A stretch of 64,000 nt of DNA from an uncultured Clostridia bacterium (lineage in GTDB: Bacteria > Bacillota > Clostridia > Christensenellales > UBA1242). The notes under the pieces were generated by a model. That model was given only the letters and a program-made list of their open reading frames with translations. It was not told where the DNA came from and searched no databases. Made by a program: the position numbers and the translations under genes. Of the stretch, positions 27,149 through 35,356 are shown one piece after another. Every line of letters begins with the position of its first letter. Position 1 is the first letter of the stretch. Location of the stretch: positions 26,755 through 90,754 of the forward strand of contig CALVMV010000003.1 of NCBI GenBank assembly GCA_944349375.1, read 5' to 3'.

Positions 27149-27276
27149 TATTTTGGTTATTTAAAATTTAAGTTGGCATCAACTTTTTATATAAATTTTA
27201 TTAAAACAAAGACATGTGCTAGATGTCAACAATTTTTTCAAAATTACCAAATCTTAATTTAATAAAAGGGGAAATT

Positions 27277-28869
27277 ATGAACAACAGTATTAGTTTATTA
27301 TGTGATGCTGTTGCTACCGCAGGTGTTGTTGCTGGAATATGCGCACTTATAGTAGGTTTAATAATTGGTATTTTTGTTTATAAATTTGTTATTGACAAAA
27401 AAATTAACAAGAATAAATCTAATGCAGTAAAAATTATTGAAGATGCCTATGCGGAAGCAAAAAGCGTAAAAAAAGAATCTATTTTAGAAGCAAAAGAAGA
27501 AGCTCAAAAAATTAGAGATGAAGCTAACAATGAGGCAAATGAAAGAAGGCGAGAGATACAAAAACAAGAAGAAAGATTAGATCAAAGAGAAGAGTATGTA
27601 ACTAAAAAAGAACAACTTTTAGATACTAAATCTGAACAAATCGAAAATGAAAAGCAAAAGGTTGAAGATGAAAAATTAAAACTAAGTGAAAAAATCAATG
27701 AACAAGAAGTAATAAAAGTTCAAATGCTTGAAAAACTTGAAAAAATTTCAGGGTTATCAAAGAAAGAGGCAAAAGATATTTTAATTGAAAGCATTACTGA
27801 TGAAGCAAAAAAAGATGCTGGAGCAATTGTAAAACAAATTGAAGATGAAGCCAGAGAAAATGCTGAAAAACATGCACAAGAAATTGTAATTGGAGCAATA
27901 CAAAAGTGTGCAACAGACCTTACGAGTGAGATGACAGTAACATCAGTTGCTCTTCCAAATGATGAAATGAAAGGCAGAATTATTGGTCGTGAAGGACGAA
28001 ATATTCGTTCTATTGAAAGTGCAACTGGAGTTGAACTTATAGTTGATGATACACCTGAAACAATTACCATTTCTAGTTTTGATCCTTTTAGAAGAGAGAT
28101 CGCAAGATTATCTCTTGAAAAACTTATTGTTGATGGAAGAATTCATCCTGGAAGAATCGAAGAAATTGTTGAGAAATCTACAATTGAAGTAGAAAAAGCA
28201 ATCAAAGAAGCTGGAGAAAATGCTTGCAACGAAACTCAAATTTATAATTTAAATCCTGAACTTGTTAAAGTTTTAGGAAGATTAAAGTTTAGAACTAGTT
28301 ATGGACAAAATTGCTTAAAACATAGTGTTGAAACATCAATTATTGCTGGTTTAATCGCGGCTGAAATTGGTGCAAATGTTACTGTGGCAAAAAGGGGAGG
28401 CCTTTTACATGATATAGGGAAAGCTCTTGACCACGAAATCGAAGGGACACATGTTTCTATTGGAGTTGACCTTGCAAAAAAATATAAAGAAAATGAAGCT
28501 GTGATTCATTGTATAGAAGCTCACCATGGTAACGTTCCTTTTCATAGTATAGAAGCTATTATAGTTCAAGTGGCAGATGCAATATCAAGTTCTAGACCAG
28601 GCGCAAGACGAGAAAGTTTTGAAAACTATATAAAAAGATTGCAGCAACTTGAAACAATTTGCAATGATTTTAAAGGTGTTGAAAAATCTTATGCAATTCA
28701 GGCTGGTAGAGAAGTTCGTATTATGGTAAAACCAGATGAAATTAGTGATAACGAAGCTTTATTTATGGCAAAAGAAATTGCAAAAAGAATTGAAAACGAA
28801 ATGCAGTATCCTGGTCAAATTAAAGTTAACGTTATTAGAGAATCAAGATTTACTGATACAGCTAAATAA
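27277..28869 (+). CDS. rny: Ribonuclease Y
   Basis: N-terminal TM, coiled coil, KH (KGRIIGREGRNIR), HD domain (LLHDIGK, EAHH, RPGAR); start after SD AAGGGG. Confidence 0.97.
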   Translation: MNNSISLLCDAVATAGVVAGICALIVGLIIGIFVYKFVIDKKINKNKSNAVKIIEDAYAEAKSVKKESILEAKEEAQKIRDEANNEANERRREIQKQEERLDQREEYVTKKEQLLDTKSEQIENEKQKVEDEKLKLSEKINEQEVIKVQMLEKLEKISGLSKKEAKDILIESITDEAKKDAGAIVKQIEDEARENAEKHAQEIVIGAIQKCATDLTSEMTVTSVALPNDEMKGRIIGREGRNIRSIESATGVELIVDDTPETITISSFDPFRREIARLSLEKLIVDGRIHPGRIEEIVEKSTIEVEKAIKEAGENACNETQIYNLNPELVKVLGRLKFRTSYGQNCLKHSVETSIIAGLIAAEIGANVTVAKRGGLLHDIGKALDHEIEGTHVSIGVDLAKKYKENEAVIHCIEAHHGNVPFHSIEAIIVQVADAISSSRPGARRESFENYIKRLQQLETICNDFKGVEKSYAIQAGREVRIMVKPDEISDNEALFMAKEIAKRIENEMQYPGQIKVNVIRESRFTDTAK

Positions 28870-28972
28870 CAAAAAAGCCTATATTTATATTTAGGCTTTT
28901 TTATTTGTTTGATAATAAAGTTCGTGTTAAAAAATATAAAGTTTAATATGAGATTTTTAAAAAGCAAAAAAA

Positions 28973-29000
28973 AGAAGAATGGTCGATTGACTATTCTTCT
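28973..29000 (-). terminator. Terminator downstream of the recombinase gene
   Basis: agaagaatggtc-gatt-gactattcttct hairpin with an A-run on its left (U-tract on the - strand). Confidence 0.75.
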
Positions 29001-29096
29001 CTTTTAATGTGAAGCATATTTCCTTCACAGTTATAATTTGTGCAAAACACAAAAATATATACACCTTTAAAAAATTTTTTTATTTTAAATGGTAAT

Positions 29097-30143
29097 TTAT
29101 TGATCTGTATTTCTTAATTGTAAAACATTTGCAACACTTTTTCTCATGTCTTCATTAATAGCAGCATAATGCTTCTTTGTAGTATTTACATCTTTATGTC
29201 CTAGAACATCTGCTACAATATAAATATCTTTAGTTTCTCGATAAAGGTTAGTCCCAAATGTACTTCTAAGCTTATGAGGGGAAATCTTTTTCAAAGGAGA
29301 GGCAATTTTAGCAAATTTTTTTACTAAATTTTCAACTGCTCTTATTGAAATTCGTTTATTTTGCAAAGATATAAACATGGCTTTTTCTTCTTGTGATATT
29401 GGAAGGGTGGCTCGTTTTTCTAACCATGTTTTTAACGCCATAGCTACTTCATCTGAAAAATACAACATTGATTTGTTACCACCTTTTCTAGTAACTACGA
29501 AAGCATTTTCTTTAAAGTCGAAATTATCTATGTCTAATCCCACAAGTTCAGAGATTCTTATGCCTGTTCCTAAAAATAAAGTTACTATAGCATTATCCCT
29601 TTCAAAAGTATTTTTGTTATAAGATTTTTGCTTTTGTGTAAAATCTAGTGGATTTTCAATAGCATTAAGCATTTTTGAAACTTCATCTTTCTCTAGTCTA
29701 ATTATTTCTTTATTATGTAATTTTGGTGTTTCAATTTTGCTTACTACATTAGAAGATATGAGGTCATGATTAAATAAATACTTGAAAAAACTTCTTAAAG
29801 AAGCTAGTTTTCTAGCTTTTCCGCGTTCTTTATTTTGGCTAACTTTATTATTTTCACCACTATAATAAGATAAGTAAGATAAGAATTGTTCTATATCACG
29901 AGATTTAAGTTTATTTAAATCCTCAAAAGAGATCTCTTTCTTTTTTTTATGAAAAATATTTTCCGATATATATTCAAAAAATACATTTAAATCCATCGCA
30001 TAATTATATCTAGTTAGCGAAGATGTGTTATTTTCAATACCTATAAAAAAATCTAAGCAATAATAGGGGAGAGATTCCAAGTATTTGCTCATTTTCATTC
30101 TATTTTTTAAATCTCTTTTTTCATAAAATGATAATTTATCCAT
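29097..30143 (-). CDS. XerS-like tyrosine recombinase (348 aa)
   Basis: Full catalytic set: GTGIRISE (R), TRKGG (K), PHKLR (HxxR), LGHKD (H), TKKHY (Y); N-terminus LPYYCLDFF..T..NY..D..FF resembles XerS-type; no flanking mobile-element genes. Confidence 0.85.
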   Translation of the reverse strand: MDKLSFYEKRDLKNRMKMSKYLESLPYYCLDFFIGIENNTSSLTRYNYAMDLNVFFEYISENIFHKKKKEISFEDLNKLKSRDIEQFLSYLSYYSGENNKVSQNKERGKARKLASLRSFFKYLFNHDLISSNVVSKIETPKLHNKEIIRLEKDEVSKMLNAIENPLDFTQKQKSYNKNTFERDNAIVTLFLGTGIRISELVGLDIDNFDFKENAFVVTRKGGNKSMLYFSDEVAMALKTWLEKRATLPISQEEKAMFISLQNKRISIRAVENLVKKFAKIASPLKKISPHKLRSTFGTNLYRETKDIYIVADVLGHKDVNTTKKHYAAINEDMRKSVANVLQLRNTDQ

Positions 30144-30190
30144 AGTTAAAGGATAGCACATTTGTTTGAAAAAACAAAACAAAAACAGAT

Positions 30191-30204
30191 ATCTATGCGT
30201 AAAA
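30191..30204. promoter_or_regulatory. Half-site identical to the arm of the 32746-32783 palindrome
   Basis: ATCTATGCGTAAAA, exact 14-nt match, just upstream of the recombinase -35 region. Confidence 0.65.
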
Positions 30205-30378
30205 TATTTAATTTTTCAGTTTTGGTTTAACATAATACTTACAATATATTGTATCTACTATATTTTTATAATAGAAAAAGAATTTATTTAAATTTTTAAA
30301 TATATTTTTAAATTATCACTTAATTAATTTGACTATTTTAGTAAAAAAAGGTAAGATATTTGTTAAGTGAGGAAGGTT

Positions 30379-31668
30379 ATGATAGATATAAATTTAATTA
30401 GAACAAATCCTGAATTAGTAAAAGAAAATATCAAGAAAAAATTCCAGGATCAAAAACTTCAATATGTTGATGAAGTTTTAAAATTAGATGGTGAAATTAG
30501 GTCATTAAAAAGAGAAGGAGATTCTTTGCGTAGTCAAAGAAATGCGAAAAGTTCTCAAATTGGTCAATGTATGAAAGAAAAAAACATTGAACAAGCAAAC
30601 TTTATTAAAAATGAAGTTGTAAAAATTAATGAAAGATTAATTCAAATTGAAAAAGATGAACTTTCTCTTTCAGAAAAATTGAAAACATATATGATGTCAA
30701 TTCCAAATATAATTGATGATGATGTTCCAATCGGAAAAGATGATAGTGAAAATGTTCAAAGATTAACTGTAGGAGAGGCTAAAAAGGTTGATTTTGAAAT
30801 TCCTTATCATGCCCAAATTATGGAAAGTTTAAATGGTTTAGATATTGATAGCGCAAGAAGAACAAGCGGGACAGGATTTTATTACTTAACAGGAGATATC
30901 GCTAGATTGCATTCTGCAATTCTTTCTTATGCCAGAGATTTTATGATTAATAAAGGCTTTACTTATTGTGTTCCTCCATTTATGATTAGAAGCGATGTGG
31001 TTAATGGTGTTATGAGCTTTGAAGAAATGGAAAATATGATGTATAAAATTGAAGGCGAAGACTTATATTTGATTGGAACTAGCGAACATTCTATGATTGG
31101 AAGATTTAAAGATACAATATTAAAAGAAGAAGAGTTGCCTTTAATGTTAACTTCGTATTCTCCATGTTTTAGAAAAGAAATTGGAGCTCATGGGATTGAA
31201 GAAAGAGGTGTATATCGAGTTCATCAATTTGAAAAACAAGAAATGATTGTAATTTGCAAACCTGAAGATTCAAAAGAATGGTATAATAAAATGTGGCAAA
31301 TTTCATCAGAATTTTTTAAGACTTTGGATATCCCACATGAAGTTATGGAATGTTGCAGTGGAGATTTAGCAGATTTGAAGGTAAAATCTTGTGATTTAAA
31401 TGCATGGAGTCCAAGACAAAACAAGTATTTTGGAGAAGTTGGTTCTTGTTCTAATCTATCTGATGCCCAAGCTAGAAGATTGGGAATTCGTTACAAATCA
31501 AGCGAAGGAATAAAATTTGCTCATACTTTAAACAATACTGTTGTTGCGCCTCCTAGAATGCTTATTGCATTTTTGGAAAATAACATAAACAAAGATGGAA
31601 GCATTAATATCCCTGTTGCTTTAAGAAATTATATGGGTGGAAAAGATAAAATTTATCCAAAAAAATAA
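30379..31668 (+). CDS. serS: Serine-tRNA ligase
   Basis: MIDINLIR, IPN, LIGTSEH, CFRKE, RVHQFEKQE, SCSN, HTLNNT; promoter TTGACT-17-TAAGAT. Confidence 0.97.
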   Translation: MIDINLIRTNPELVKENIKKKFQDQKLQYVDEVLKLDGEIRSLKREGDSLRSQRNAKSSQIGQCMKEKNIEQANFIKNEVVKINERLIQIEKDELSLSEKLKTYMMSIPNIIDDDVPIGKDDSENVQRLTVGEAKKVDFEIPYHAQIMESLNGLDIDSARRTSGTGFYYLTGDIARLHSAILSYARDFMINKGFTYCVPPFMIRSDVVNGVMSFEEMENMMYKIEGEDLYLIGTSEHSMIGRFKDTILKEEELPLMLTSYSPCFRKEIGAHGIEERGVYRVHQFEKQEMIVICKPEDSKEWYNKMWQISSEFFKTLDIPHEVMECCSGDLADLKVKSCDLNAWSPRQNKYFGEVGSCSNLSDAQARRLGIRYKSSEGIKFAHTLNNTVVAPPRMLIAFLENNINKDGSINIPVALRNYMGGKDKIYPKK

Positions 31669-31689
31669 GGATTTAGAAGGTGTAATTTC

Positions 31690-32637
31690 ATGTCAAATTT
31701 GGTTATAGATAAAAGTTTAATAGAAAGCATTGTAAAAAATGATAATCAGTCTTATTATAAAAAAGTTAATGATAGAGTTTCTTCAATATTAACAAATTCT
31801 ATTAAGCGTTTGTCTAAGCAAATACCATACATTAGCACTGAAAATGTAGTTTTGCAACCATATAATGAAATATTATCAGGAGCTATAACTGATAATAGCA
31901 TTTTTTCTTATTTATTAGGTGTCGAAAGTGCTCAATTAGAATTAAATACTAGAAAAGTAAACACTTTTTGGCGCAATTTGAAAAAAAGATTAAAATTTGC
32001 ATGGGCAAATAGAAGAAAAAGAAAATCAAAAAAGAATAAAGATGTTAAACAAGATAAAATTGATTTTAATTCAGGGAAATATAATATATATAGCTTAACT
32101 GATGATTTGTTCGAAGCAATAGTACTTAATTTGTGCGAAACTTCGCTAATCTCAAAAGAGGACAATTGTTTGTATATTGTTGGGAAAGATGATTTTGGGG
32201 TAAATGCAAAAATTAAAATAGAAGTTTGTCTTTATTCAAATGAAAATTTTAAATTTTTTATTAATAAGAAAAAAGGATTTAAAGAATATAATTTGAATTG
32301 CAGACTTAACTGTTTAAATGAAAAGATATTGGAAGCAGGTCCTAACTTTGTCAATATGCTTAAAATATTTAATGTTTTGTATTTTTATGTAAATCAAGAA
32401 CATCCAAATGCTATGTTTTTAGAAAGTATATTGTATAATGTGCCAGACAAATTATATGAAGACAAAAGTGTTTACGATACTTTTTTGAAAGTAGTAAATT
32501 ATTTGACATTAAAGTCTATAAATAATTTTAAATCAATAAATGATATAAGTTTAAAATTATATCAAGATAAAATGTTTAATAACCAAGATCAAGTATCTTA
32601 TTTAAAAATGATGAGAATAATTGCAGAAAAAAAATAA
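31690..32637 (+). CDS. Nucleotidyltransferase-fold protein resembling CD-NTase/SMODS, catalytic motifs apparently degenerate
   Basis: C-terminal K...GPNFVNMLKIF...PNAMFLESILYNVPD.LY...YDTF..V.NYL resembles the CdnE-like C-lobe; no GS or DxD motif at the expected place. ORF solid, family tentative. Confidence 0.5.
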   Translation: MSNLVIDKSLIESIVKNDNQSYYKKVNDRVSSILTNSIKRLSKQIPYISTENVVLQPYNEILSGAITDNSIFSYLLGVESAQLELNTRKVNTFWRNLKKRLKFAWANRRKRKSKKNKDVKQDKIDFNSGKYNIYSLTDDLFEAIVLNLCETSLISKEDNCLYIVGKDDFGVNAKIKIEVCLYSNENFKFFINKKKGFKEYNLNCRLNCLNEKILEAGPNFVNMLKIFNVLYFYVNQEHPNAMFLESILYNVPDKLYEDKSVYDTFLKVVNYLTLKSINNFKSINDISLKLYQDKMFNNQDQVSYLKMMRIIAEKK

Positions 32638-32745
32638 TCTGCAATTTTTTTATAAACTTAATTTTTAAATATAATATAAAAATTTAATAATTTGAATATT
32701 TATAAAAAAATAACAAAATAGCTTTAAAAATGCGCTATCATGCAT

Positions 32746-32783
32746 TAATCTATGCGTAAAAGTTGTGTTTTACGCATAGATTA
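32746..32783. repeat. Perfect inverted repeat, candidate dif (chromosome dimer resolution) site
   Basis: TAATCTATGCGTAAAA-GTTGTG-TTTTACGCATAGATTA (16-6-16), intergenic, at the gene-orientation switch. Confidence 0.7.
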
Positions 32784-32960
32784 TGCAAGTTTATATTTTT
32801 AAAAATTTACCCCTATTCTATTATTTTTAACATCTAATTTCATATCATACTGCCAAAAATTTTTTATAATTAAGTAATTGCCCTTCAAACATTATCAAAA
32901 ATTATTAACTTTTTAAAATAAAAAAAGAAGATAAATTAAAAGAGTTTATAATCCCCCTTT

Positions 32961-33551
32961 TTAAATATCTTTTTTTAACAAAAATGCAAAATTTGAGAGC
33001 TGACATTTTGTATCCTTGTAATTTGGGCAAAATTTTTCTACAAGATTCCAAAATTTAGGAGAATGATTCATTTGCTTGCTATGACATAATTCATGTATGA
33101 TTATGTATTGTATAATATCTTTTGGTAAAATTATACATTTAAAATTAAGCATTATTACTTTTTTTGATGAATAACTCCCCCACAGTCTTTTTGAGCTTTT
33201 TATCACTATTTTATTATAATGATACCCTATTTGTTCTTTTGTCAATTCAATCAATTTTGGCAATTCATTTAATGCCAAAGTTTTATAATCAATGATCTTA
33301 TCCTTTTTATATTGTTTTCCATAGATATAATAATAATTTTCAAAATCGAATGATTTTTCAAAATCACTTCTTTGTTTTTGTAAAGATAATTGCTTTTGAA
33401 TCCATCTTTGTTTTGTTTTTACAAAATCTAAAATCATTGTTTTGCTGACATTAAAAGGAGCCTTTACTTGTATTTGTCTATTTGGCAATATACTAAGTGA
33501 TATACTTTTTCTTTTACTTCTTTTTATTAAAATATTTGCATTATTGTTCAT
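32961..33551 (-). CDS. M48/YgjP-like (SprT-like, DUF45) zinc metallohydrolase
   Basis: RSKRKSISL, WGSYS, YIIIHELCH (HExxH), NHSPKFW. Confidence 0.9.
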   Translation of the reverse strand: MNNNANILIKRSKRKSISLSILPNRQIQVKAPFNVSKTMILDFVKTKQRWIQKQLSLQKQRSDFEKSFDFENYYYIYGKQYKKDKIIDYKTLALNELPKLIELTKEQIGYHYNKIVIKSSKRLWGSYSSKKVIMLNFKCIILPKDIIQYIIIHELCHSKQMNHSPKFWNLVEKFCPNYKDTKCQLSNFAFLLKKDI

Positions 33552-33703
33552 GCCCTAATTATAACAAATAATTTAACAAAATTGAAATATTTTTGCATAC
33601 TACCACAAAATGTAGTTAATTTTTTTTATTATTTTGCATAATAGTACATATTTTGTTTGACTTATAAATTTTGATTTTTTATAATCTTAATATAGAGGTG
33701 TTT

Positions 33704-35356
33704 ATGGAAATTTTTGCAAAGGGTCAACTTTCTTATATGATGTTAAATTGTCTTTTAGAAAGAGATTTTTATGGTCTAGACTTTATTAGTGAAATTAGTA
33801 ATAAAAGTAACGGAAGAATTAATCTAAAAAAACCTAGTGTATATTCAAATTTAACTAGAATGGAAAAGCAAGGTTATGTTTCTTCATATTCAAAAGCCAG
33901 TGACTTTGGACCTAATAGAAGATATTATTCTATAACAGAAAAAGGAAGAAATTATTATCAACAATTAAAAAATGATTTTTCAGAGAATAACATAGATGTT
34001 TTTAGAGATTTTAAAATTGAAAATGAACAAACGGATATTTTAGCCAATATTACTGATAATTCTGAATCAGAAGATGATAAAGATTTTTTTGATTTTTCTT
34101 CATTAAATAATGCTGAAAAAGAAACAAGAGAACCTATCGAGAGTATCAATATTACCAATTCAAACCAATATATAAAGAATGAAAACCAAGAACAAAAAAA
34201 TAATGTTGAAAATTTGCAACAAAAAGTTATGAATAATGAAACAACTTTAAATACCATACAAGAAAATAATTCTGTGCAAGAAAAAGATGATGGGGCTTTT
34301 TTAAATAGAGAACAAGTAGATAATTATAATCAAAGATTATATGATATCTCTAAAGATATAAGAAAATACAAAAAACAACGAAGCTTTGCTGAAGATCAAA
34401 TCGCGATGACCGTAGAAACTCCCCTACAGGAATCTGAAGAAAAAAATCGTGCTAATTTGGAGGCTTTTAAAGCTTCGTTGCTTGAGAACAAAGAAAAATT
34501 TGTAGATAATAAAGATGATTTTTATCGTTTTAATGAAAGGCAAAATAGAAATAGTTACTCAGAGAGCAAAGAGAGTAAGCAGATAAAAGGTAATACATAT
34601 TTTCAAAATAAGCCAATTAATGAAGTTGTTGAAGATGATGGAAAATTTATAACGAATCGTTTAGAAAATGAAGAATTGATCAAACAAAAAAAGATTCAAC
34701 CACCTCGTTTAAAAATACTACAAAACGATAAATCTGATGCCCTACCTCCTCCTAATAGAGATGTCAAAATCGATCCTTCTCATAAAGAGATCATTTCTCA
34801 GCTATATTCTAGAACTAAAGATGGTCGAGAAGAGGAAGGAAATGGATTAAATGCTTTGTATGATTATCAAGATTTACAAGAATTTTATGATGAACAAAAT
34901 GTATCATTTAAAGAATATAAAAAGACGAATATAGAAGTAAAACACAATACAAACAAATTATTTTTTATTCAAAGTTTAATTGTTTTTTTCTTATTATCAA
35001 TATTTTCATCTATTACATATATTGCATTGTATTATTCTGGACTAATTAATTCAACTTTTAACTTTTTATTTATTTTGCTACCAGCTCTACAATTAATTGT
35101 AATTTCAATAAAATTTTATAATTATAAGTGTCATACAAGTTGGATACCTAAGAAAATGGCTTCGATCTGGGAAATTTTTGGTTATACCCTTTTAATTGTG
35201 GCAGCCATAATAGGTATAAATTTTATATTTGGATTAAATACAAATAATTTTGAATTGTATGCAACTACAACTCTATTACCTGTGATTTTGACAATAATTG
35301 CACTGCCTGTTGCTTATTTTATAAAAAGAGCATTAATTGTAAAATATTGGAAATAA
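33704..35356 (+). CDS. PadR-family winged-helix protein with a long polar linker and about 4 C-terminal TM helices
   Basis: YGLDF..I...KKPSVYSNLTRMEKQGYV...PNRRYYSITEKG; hydrophobic C-terminus; SD GAGGTG before ATG 33704. Confidence 0.8.
   Translation: MEIFAKGQLSYMMLNCLLERDFYGLDFISEISNKSNGRINLKKPSVYSNLTRMEKQGYVSSYSKASDFGPNRRYYSITEKGRNYYQQLKNDFSENNIDVFRDFKIENEQTDILANITDNSESEDDKDFFDFSSLNNAEKETREPIESINITNSNQYIKNENQEQKNNVENLQQKVMNNETTLNTIQENNSVQEKDDGAFLNREQVDNYNQRLYDISKDIRKYKKQRSFAEDQIAMTVETPLQESEEKNRANLEAFKASLLENKEKFVDNKDDFYRFNERQNRNSYSESKESKQIKGNTYFQNKPINEVVEDDGKFITNRLENEELIKQKKIQPPRLKILQNDKSDALPPPNRDVKIDPSHKEIISQLYSRTKDGREEEGNGLNALYDYQDLQEFYDEQNVSFKEYKKTNIEVKHNTNKLFFIQSLIVFFLLSIFSSITYIALYYSGLINSTFNFLFILLPALQLIVISIKFYNYKCHTSWIPKKMASIWEIFGYTLLIVAAIIGINFIFGLNTNNFELYATTTLLPVILTIIALPVAYFIKRALIVKYWK

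Follow-up and report, generated by a model that had tools for sequence, protein, structure and literature searches.

Does the perfect palindrome found in the DNA of an uncultured Clostridia bacterium serve as the chromosome dimer resolution site of the tyrosine recombinase encoded near it, and does that recombinase work without a partner? The question was raised by an initial annotation of a stretch of 64,000 nucleotides (here called the window; contig CALVMV010000003.1 of assembly GCA_944349375.1, positions 26,755 to 90,754 of the forward strand), in which a 38-bp palindrome was proposed as a dif site of a possibly undescribed clostridial type and a XerS-like protein as its only recombinase. 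Chromosome dimer resolution is, to our knowledge, nearly universal among bacteria with circular chromosomes. Sequence comparison indicated that the palindrome is very probably a dif-type site of the XerS-like recombinase, which would act alone in this genus. The predicted site-enzyme pair is not confined to this genome: its conservation extends over an order of gut Clostridia, and it is also present in other orders of the class. The order is presumably Christensenellales in the GTDB sense.

The letters, place and copy number of the palindrome were analysed. Two 16-bp arms surround a 6-bp spacer exactly as the annotation had described, and the extension by TGCA on each side with one bulge was likewise found (Table 1). 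In relatives, the palindrome is not kept beyond 14 bp per arm. The site is non-coding and lies between two convergent open reading frames (ORFs), in agreement with the intergenic position claimed for it. The 38-mer gave one match in the window at up to 3 mismatches, and none of 100 shuffles matched. A single match was also obtained at up to 6 substitutions in the whole assembly (G000; 941,914 bases in 15 contigs, 79.55% complete, with the window on the 158-kb contig C3), which answers the proposed check of uniqueness in the genome. Three short contigs of this assembly (C11, C14 and C15) showed a GC content of 52-62% compared to 29-30% elsewhere; they are probably foreign to the bin.

The conservation of the site was analysed in the genus, the order and the class. 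Orthologues of the recombinase were present in 23 of 24 same-genus genomes with 69-86% identity; in the rest of the order, 14 of the 16 genomes that represent other families had one, with 47-55% identity. The comparison of 18 same-genus loci of 13-20 kb revealed an exact-core site at the same syntenic place in 12 loci and a site with a single core mismatch in one more (L052). Among the remaining loci, L050 was cut by a contig end and four had no site nearby. The genomes of these four, as well as G018, contained exactly one exact-core site each, which lay on another contig in G019 and G018. For the order, a loose core pattern, CGYAAAA-N6-TTTTRCG, matched in 163 of 201 genomes, chance hairpins included. 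Because the loose pattern caught chance matches, the strict pattern CTATKCGYAAAA-N6-TTTTRCGMATAG with at most 2 mismatches was adopted. It was found in 140 of the 201 genomes, and its backwards control, the pattern reversed, in none. The strict pattern occurred once in 133 genomes and two to four times in seven (G092, G113, G133, G157, G172, G177 and G197). Many dispersed copies, which the annotation had named as evidence against a dif site, were thus not seen. Extra matches of the loose pattern were also considered as flanks of integrated elements. This idea was rejected, since the second match of G041 lies inside an ORF without outer arms and the match in G101 is an unrelated hairpin. A conserved arm-spacer-arm motif in genomes with recombinase orthologues, which had been put forward as a further check, is present in the genus, in the order and in other orders.

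The anatomy of the site family was derived from 108 pooled loci, of which 64 had a site, giving 57 distinct 34-mers. The consensus of these 57 sites, in which the seven inner positions of each arm were preset by the search pattern and the better of two spacer orientations was picked, reads AWCTATKCGYAAAA, then the spacer [C/G/T]ACARS, then TTTTRCGMATAGWT. The arms were symmetric at 14 of 14 positions in 20 sites and at 13 positions in 15 sites, and the third spacer position was C in 51 of the 57. At arm positions 2, 4, 5, 7 and 10, both arms agreed in 46, 56, 46, 51 and 42 sites, an agreement at variable positions that was reached in none of 2000 shuffles. One family alters both arms jointly at the inner run (CGTTAAA...TTTAACG). 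Arms that vary in concert fit a single protein species reading both of them. A spacer that is asymmetric, conserved and constant in length is what would be expected of a strand-exchange region and not of a hairpin loop. The left arm and spacer ACTATGCGCAAAA-TACAAG are retained in other orders and the right arm is looser there, which would make these sites closer to classical dif sites. The general description of a Xer/dif site, with inverted arms around a spacer of 6-8 bp, one copy per chromosome and a non-coding position, applies to the palindrome.

More distant relatives carry other palindromes. In family f43 (L221-L223), where the homologues have about 35% identity, CTATTCCKAAAA-N6-TTTTnGGAATAG palindromes were found 2.3-8 kb from the gene. 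Another of these distant homologues (L215, genome G868) is linked to the palindrome CCTTCGTTAAA-TATATG-TTTAACGAAGG. At L177 (genome G475) the usual site is absent near the gene, and another perfect-looking palindrome, AATTGCGCATAA-TATATA-ATATGCGCAATT, lies about 1.47 kb upstream of the orthologue. Judging from family f43 and L215, changes of the site type seem to go together with those of the recombinase clade.

The position of the site relative to the replication terminus was analysed from GC skew and gene orientation. The cumulative GC skew of contig C3 rises to a plateau at about 32.5-35.3 kb of the window and then drops, with its maximum at 34678, and the site is at a local peak of the curve at 32500-32750. 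The ORFs of at least 200 aa on this contig number 31 on the plus and 5 on the minus strand to the left of the site, compared to 7 and 58 to its right, which bears out the flip of gene orientation noted by the annotation. This pattern of skew and gene orientation is a replication-terminus signature. The annotation had also proposed to look for the site at the cumulative skew extremum. The distance between the two is within about 2 kb here, and was 85, 36 and 28 bp in G008, G003 and G001 of the same genus. The recombinase gene of these three genomes lies 17.7, 15.8 and 16.7 kb from the site, which stands between unrelated convergent genes with none of its usual neighbours. The skew was found to run monotonically through the recombinase gene in the loci L042-L044. 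Since the switch stays at the site where the gene is 16-18 kb off, it tracks the palindrome and not the gene. Across 13 same-genus loci with a site, the local skew maximum was 12 bp to 3.4 kb away.

Similar results were obtained outside the genus. The skew maximum of G033, a complete genome of the same order, lies 310 bp from the site. G028, a complete genome of 2.56 Mb from another family, has the site AACTATTCGCAAAA-CTTGTG-TTTTGCGAATAGTT at 2,270,633, adjoining the recombinase gene. Its skew between 1 and 780 kb was negative in five of seven sampled windows of that genome and near zero (+0.01, -0.04) in the other two; positive values followed between 910 kb and 2.21 Mb, and past 2.27 Mb the skew was negative once more, with the plus-to-minus switch at the recombinase gene. 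In other orders of the class, gene and site were found at the plus-to-minus switch, at 29 bp in G485, 61 bp in G301, 2.6 kb in G409 and 3.0 kb in G357. The recombinase gene of G475 is still at the skew switch, despite the absence of the usual site.

A skew switch within tens of bases of the site in several genomes would also be expected of a terminus-organising or fork-arrest (Ter-like) site of another protein, whose linkage to Xer would come from their shared location at the terminus. The perfect palindrome suits a symmetric dimer of such a protein, and the site is distant from the recombinase gene in three genus members. This alternative was weighed against the association of site and gene. 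Public contigs contained at least 596 stretches encoding relatives of the recombinase, and the best 80 were analysed together with as much as 3 kb of flanking DNA on either side. A site with an exact core and 10 or more of the 14 arm positions symmetric was present in 43 of these best 80 of at least 596 loci. Every one of the 43 lies upstream of the gene for the recombinase, the median distance being 232 bp, and no site was found on the downstream side. The distance was within 200 bp in 19 loci, 201-700 bp in 14 and larger in 10. Hence 33 of the 43 site-bearing loci have the site at most 700 bp upstream, compared to 2603 bp in the window, counted from the gene start at ATG 30143 and in accordance with the distance of about 2.6 kb to an intact tyrosine recombinase given by the annotation. 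The close public relatives are labelled as Candidatus Caccovivens, which NCBI places in Eubacteriales incertae sedis, and those of about 50-55% identity as Christensenellaceae, Christensenella, Gallimonas and Scatosoma.

The co-occurrence of site and recombinase was analysed in 301 genomes drawn from the class. A homologue of the recombinase (E <=1e-40) was found in 76 of them and the site (at most 3 mismatches) in 32. Out of the site-bearing genomes, 28 were among the 76 with the recombinase, and 4 were among the 225 without it. As for these four exceptions, the family of G269 has another sampled member with gene and site, and the matches of G429 and G453 are weak ones with three mismatches. 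No probability is given for the co-occurrence, because the genomes are related. These counts argue against a Ter-like site of another protein. So do the layout of AAAA-ending arm, 6-bp spacer and TTTT-starting arm, which is that of difH and difSL, the lack of any other gene linked consistently to the site, and the phage contigs that carry the same arms with other spacers. A Ter-like role is hence considered unlikely.

The family and the catalytic residues of the recombinase were examined. The protein matches Pfam PF00589 and PF02899, and the residues R196, K220, H290, R293, H316 and Y326 (numbered from ATG 30143) are invariant in 8 orthologues, which identifies a tyrosine recombinase of the Xer subgroup with a complete catalytic set. 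The orthologue alignment favours ATG 30143 over TTG 30182 as start codon. The best NCBIfam model was XerS (NF003462), which aligned end to end (positions 6-354 of 360) with 188.3 bits compared to a cut-off of 267; the XerC, XerA and XerD models also matched, with 158-170 bits. XerS was the best-matching family for all 8 orthologues, with a best E-value of 1.2e-58 among them, and the window protein scored 188.5 bits in this comparison, under the cut-off. The closest solved structures by sequence were XerD (1a0p, E 2.7e-18) and XerA, and XerH (5jjv) matched more weakly (9.5e-11).

Among 401 genomes drawn from the phylum, the XerS model was passed by 7 proteins in 6 genomes of 4.6-7.3 Mb, with 381-405 bits. 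Among genomes of about 7 Mb from the same phylum, G883 carries two such passers (383 and 381 bits), and G664 carries one together with a relative of 210 bits. Since these two genomes carry passers, XerS-type enzymes are not limited to streptococci and lactococci.

The relation to XerS was further analysed in a maximum-likelihood tree of 32 rows with midpoint root, in which four long-branched XerCD-like rows served as outgroup and XerH and XerA were left out. The recombinases of this order and of other orders formed one clade (support 100/99). This clade joined family f43 and one more row (98/94), and the resulting group was sister to the clade of XerS-model proteins (98/92) and not placed inside it. 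The joint node of the two had 96/89 versus the four XerCD-like rows. By these tests, the enzyme is predicted to be XerS-like in its working, yet outside the XerS equivalog. The label XerS-like used by the annotation therefore holds for the nearest model and its end-to-end alignment, whereas the score below the cut-off and the sister position set the enzyme apart from XerS itself.

The presence of a second recombinase was also examined. The XerD model gave 157.6 bits for the recombinase in G000 and 72.4 bits for the next best protein; in four same-genus genomes of at least 99% completeness it gave 152-159 bits for the orthologue and at most 46.6 bits for the next. No other Xer-type recombinase and no canonical XerC or XerD was found in G000 (79.55% complete) or in these four relatives, and a pair of paralogous recombinases of XerC/XerD type was not seen in the genus. 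The canonical XerCD/dif pair elsewhere in the genome, held by the annotation to be incompatible with its proposal, was thus found in none of the five genomes. One FtsK with a gamma domain is encoded outside the window (G000:C3:152494-153567; PF01580 224.9 bits, PF09397 88.3 bits). Strand-skewed 7-mers and 8-mers on contig C3 mirror the gene-strand bias and gave no clear candidate for a polar FtsK-guiding motif.

These features can be combined in a proposed mechanism. Two copies of the XerS-like recombinase would bind the two identical arms, with AWCTATKCGYAAAA as the conserved arm. In joined sister chromosomes (a dimer), two sites would meet at the closing septum. Cleavage of the strands where arm and spacer meet, followed by exchange over the asymmetric spacer of 6 bp, would then give two monomers. 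The gamma-domain FtsK would probably deliver and license the reaction. The direction of the site would be carried by the spacer alone, because the arms are identical. The same holds for loxP, whose direction is set by the spacer between identical arms. In the genus, the complete site would have been parted from the gene by serS and the 315-aa ORF, or by 16-18 kb, with one arm left behind. A wider reading, of a single-recombinase system sister to XerS with a loxP-like dif, in which the order of exchange and the control by FtsK are read from the spacer and phages borrow the enzyme, is tentative and rather doubtful.

The annotation had described the recombinase as encoded near its site. Among order-level loci, the complete site lies 23-103 bp upstream of the start codon in five of six, and the sixth is cut by a contig end. 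The ancestral layout, as reconstructed from these loci, is a site directly upstream of the gene, like that of XerS/difSL. The described proximity thus fits the ancestral layout, whereas in the genus the site is 2.6 to about 18 kb away and a gene-proximal arm is left at the gene. In 23 same-genus loci, the gene-proximal arm stands alone at -54 to -67 in nine and at -31 in one, and two loci have the opposite arm. The lone half-site of the window includes the third and last genome copy of the 14-mer ATCTATGCGTAAAA (30191-30204), which the annotation had overlooked; about 0.03 chance copies of this 14-mer per genome are expected from a rough base-composition estimate. In the window, serS stands between the recombinase gene and the complete site. 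The half-site and the left arm of the complete site cease to be identical precisely where the AAAA run meets the spacer, and tyrosine recombinases cut at the arm/spacer border. The half-site is read as a probable relic of the ancestral gene-adjacent site, and we infer that a rearrangement at that site shifted the complete site outward. The retained arm may serve as a regulatory binding site.

A -10-like hexamer was observed a few bases before the recombinase start in several genus members (window 30143-30204 and orthologous upstream regions). Its position suggests that the leader of the recombinase mRNA may be very short or absent. Between the lone arm and serS lies a second conserved element (30222-30262), GGTTTAACATAATACTTACAATATATTGT, with ACAATATATTGT as a 12-bp palindrome inside it. 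The element has no second copy in the genome when up to 5 mismatches are allowed. About 9 of 29 relatives have variants of it upstream of their recombinase gene, and in some of these variants GTATTATG units are repeated. We take part of this element to resemble the XerD-binding arm of canonical dif.

The whole palindrome could similarly be a transcriptional operator, either for autoregulation of the recombinase or as the target of the PadR-domain protein or another regulator. Its place upstream of the recombinase gene in most lineages, its distance of 75-450 bp upstream of the PadR-domain gene in several genus members and the lone arm just upstream of the recombinase promoter region in the genus would be explained in this way. 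In G008, G003 and G001, however, the site lies 16-18 kb from both genes and still marks the skew switch, and a conserved asymmetric spacer is unexpected for a symmetric operator. An operator of a neighbouring gene was rejected outright, because the usual neighbours are missing at the sites of these three genomes. The operator alternative is therefore regarded as very unlikely for the complete palindrome. An operator role of the lone arm is possible and compatible with the palindrome being a dif-type site.

The strict pattern was also found in 20 viral contigs (L182-L201), whose arms fit the consensus and whose spacers are unlike the chromosomal type, for example CAATGC, GGATAG and CAGTTG. Among eight viral loci examined, five (L186, L187, L190, L191 and L197) have a site that precedes the terminase large-subunit gene or its operon by about 240-660 bp. 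The site of L182 and L185 has a dUTPase gene nearby, and that of L201 has clamp-loader and QueE-like genes. A tyrosine integrase was found in two of five whole phage records (22-100% complete) and in none of the other three, which are incomplete. Use of the host enzyme through Xer sites on their own DNA is a habit of plasmids and phages, and the viral copies would fit a recombination site. The phages with this site might similarly use the host recombinase for integration, multimer resolution or cyclisation. In bacterial genomes, two strict sites 1.27 kb apart with opposite orientation and a shared spacer (TGCAAC/GTTGCA) were observed at G157:C23:109624-110927; this could represent a small integrated element or a segment that inverts. 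Besides the terminus-type site, two identical sites whose spacers are not of the chromosomal kind were observed at G133:C16:292500 and 424825, and two more at G197:C2:7260 and C67:869. These extra pairs may belong to mobile elements or duplications.

The same arms on 20 viral contigs, the two to four copies in a few genomes and the end of half-site identity at the arm/spacer border, like that after a site-specific event, are what would be expected if the site served a mobile element for attachment or resolution, with the recombinase as the integrase of that element. Such an element is difficult to reconcile with a single copy in 133 of 140 genomes, with a site at a terminus-type switch in every genome tested and with the housekeeping neighbours RNase Y, single-copy serS and SpoIVB. 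Moreover, the recombinases of the order and of other orders form one well-supported clade in the limited tree, and tblastn (1e-5) found no XerS-like gene in the available parts of the 20 viral contigs. This explanation is held to be highly improbable. The idea that serS and the 315-aa ORF form a Xer-exploiting mobile insertion was also rejected, as serS is single-copy and the ORF lacks any family match.

A mere hairpin, acting as a bidirectional terminator between convergent genes or as a structured RNA, is extremely improbable: the convergent flanking genes, the stability of the extended palindrome as a single-stranded hairpin (-17.6 kcal/mol, z-score -7.3 versus 200 shuffles), the T-rich run TTTATATTTTT that starts 2 nt past the TGCA extension in very AT-rich intergenic DNA and a symmetric covariation that would likewise keep a stem are outweighed by a consensus terminator scan with no call at the site, an Rfam search (28500-34000, E <=1) with nothing there, the conservation of the primary sequence of arms and "loop" over the order and beyond, the position upstream of the gene in GC-richer relatives, flanks without a T-tract in G028 and G033, and the single copy of the site where terminators are many. 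A terminator or RNA element was rejected on the terminator scan and Rfam, and hairpin stability does not discriminate. The GC-rich stem with U-tract of an intrinsic terminator is not present. The statement of the annotation that a U-tract is lacking agrees with the scan, and is to be qualified by the T-rich run close to the extension.

Several observations weigh against the palindrome being the dif-type site of a recombinase acting alone. The skew maximum in the window is about 1.9 kb from the site, beyond one plus-strand gene. Xer sites do not typically have perfectly symmetric arms as long as 14-16 bp, and a symmetric palindrome equally fits another dimeric DNA-binding protein or a hairpin. 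The counts of arm symmetry and spacer conservation are inflated, since the sites were preselected (exact core, at least 10 of 14 positions symmetric) and the genomes are related. In the order, 61 of 201 genomes have no match to the strict pattern. Family f8 gave strict matches in none of 8 genomes and core matches in 7 of 8; its diverged arms, for example AACACTTCGTAAAA in G031, explain why the strict pattern misses it. A second recombinase could be unassembled in G000, although the four near-complete relatives speak against that. Finally, some other families of the order have a second Xer-like gene, which in G028 encodes 314 aa and scores 173 bits; the term single recombinase is therefore supported for this genus only.

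The features of the locus are summarized in Table 1. The 315-aa ORF gave no match in Pfam, NCBIfam or PHROG. The wider neighbours of the locus include RNase Y, the YgjP-like peptidase, the PadR-domain protein and SpoIVB. The RNase Y gene (window 27223-28869) was observed 2-8 kb from the recombinase gene here and in L177, L178 and L179, which belong to other families or orders.

Table 1. Features of the recombinase locus and the palindrome, with positions in the window.
Feature	Position	Strand	Remarks
XerS-like tyrosine recombinase	29097-30143	-	348 aa from ATG 30143; TTG 30182 would give 361 aa
Lone half-site	30189-30204	+	ATATCTATGCGTAAAA; 14 bases same as arm; about 50 bp upstream of recombinase start
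serS (seryl-tRNA synthetase)	30367-31668	+	TIGR00414, 405.9 bits; single copy; synteny within genus
315-aa ORF	31690-32637	+	last gene before site; 37-63% identity beside serS in genus
Extended palindrome	32742-32787	.	TGCA on both sides, one bulged T
dif-like core site (candidate)	32746-32783	.	38-mer TAATCTATGCGTAAAA-GTTGTG-TTTTACGCATAGATTA; arms are perfect reverse complements
Left arm of core site	32746-32761
6-bp spacer of core site	32762-32767		GTTGTG
Right arm of core site	32768-32783
YgjP-like metallopeptidase gene	32961-33551	-	PF01863, 151.8 bits; convergent on site from right
PadR-domain protein	33671-35356		near site

If the palindrome is indeed the dif-type site of the XerS-like recombinase, a single-recombinase system would be added for a large and mostly uncultured share of gut Clostridia. 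The site could be used as a one-per-genome marker of the terminus for orienting and checking metagenome-assembled genomes and for reading growth-rate estimates based on coverage. It would also be a natural test case for the means by which a homomeric Xer enzyme draws direction from a fully symmetric site, and the recombinase and its site could become a compact pair for genetics in tool-poor organisms. The phage-borne copies point to an undescribed route by which tailed phages might exploit a host Xer enzyme. These copies and the symmetric arms are the most novel threads, with relevance to chromosome segregation and gut genomics.

The system was finally compared with known ones. The known single-recombinase systems, according to the consulted parts of the sources, are only XerS, XerH, archaeal XerA and XerL (PMC3025954, PMC5357621, PMC2731167, PMC8138268, PMC9765430, 10.1101/2021.09.12.459815). 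The present system is not described in those parts of the searched literature, and the suggestion of an undescribed clostridial dif type agrees with this, aside from two sets of supplementary tables that could bear on novelty, on predicted dif sites in PMC3025954 and on the classification of recombinases in PMC8138268. XerC/XerD-dif shares the inferred task, the terminus position, the 6-bp spacer and FtsK as presumed partner. It differs in having two recombinases and two different 11-bp arms, and neither XerC nor XerD was found in this genus. Cre/loxP of phage P1 resembles the present system in its symmetric arms, spacer-borne direction and homomeric tyrosine recombinase. Cre is, however, a phage enzyme for plasmid-prophage maintenance and cyclisation, with no role at a chromosomal terminus and no control by FtsK.

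XerH/difH of Helicobacter and Campylobacter likewise has a single recombinase of similar length, a site often near the gene and the AAAA-6-TTTT layout. The 40-mers of difH, as given in the accessible part of the source, have arms ending in GAAAA around a variable centre of 6 nt (PMC2731167). The differences are the weaker sequence match to XerH (5jjv), the outer arms, which are not the same, and the arms of difH, which are imperfect repeats. XerL/dif of Legionellales, in the portion of its description consulted, shares a single recombinase, long uninterrupted inverted repeats and a site that can be far from the gene (PMC9765430). The same portion states that no sequence homology can be detected between XerL and XerC, XerD, XerS or XerH (PMC9765430), whereas the present protein clearly belongs to the Xer subgroup, occurs in another phylum and has an unrelated site sequence.

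XerS/difSL of streptococci and lactococci shares a single recombinase of about 350 aa, whose N-terminal domain is extended, and a module of site and gene at the terminus, which is the putative ancestral layout here. Arms of TTCsnAAAA type (for difSL as described in the consulted part of PMC5357621), XerS as the nearest model, the sister clade and the presence of FtsK are further likenesses. The same part of that source gives difSL a length of 31 bp, arms that are imperfect and unequal, and a central region of unusual length; its arms TTTCCGAAAA and TTTTCTTGAAA are of an AAAA-ending type similar to that found here (PMC5357621). The present system differs from it in the perfect arms of 14-16 bp, the 6-bp spacer, the score of 188 versus 267 bits and the location of the site off the gene in the genus. 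The arms of family f43, CTATTCCKAAAA, would form a bridge from the present sites towards difSL.

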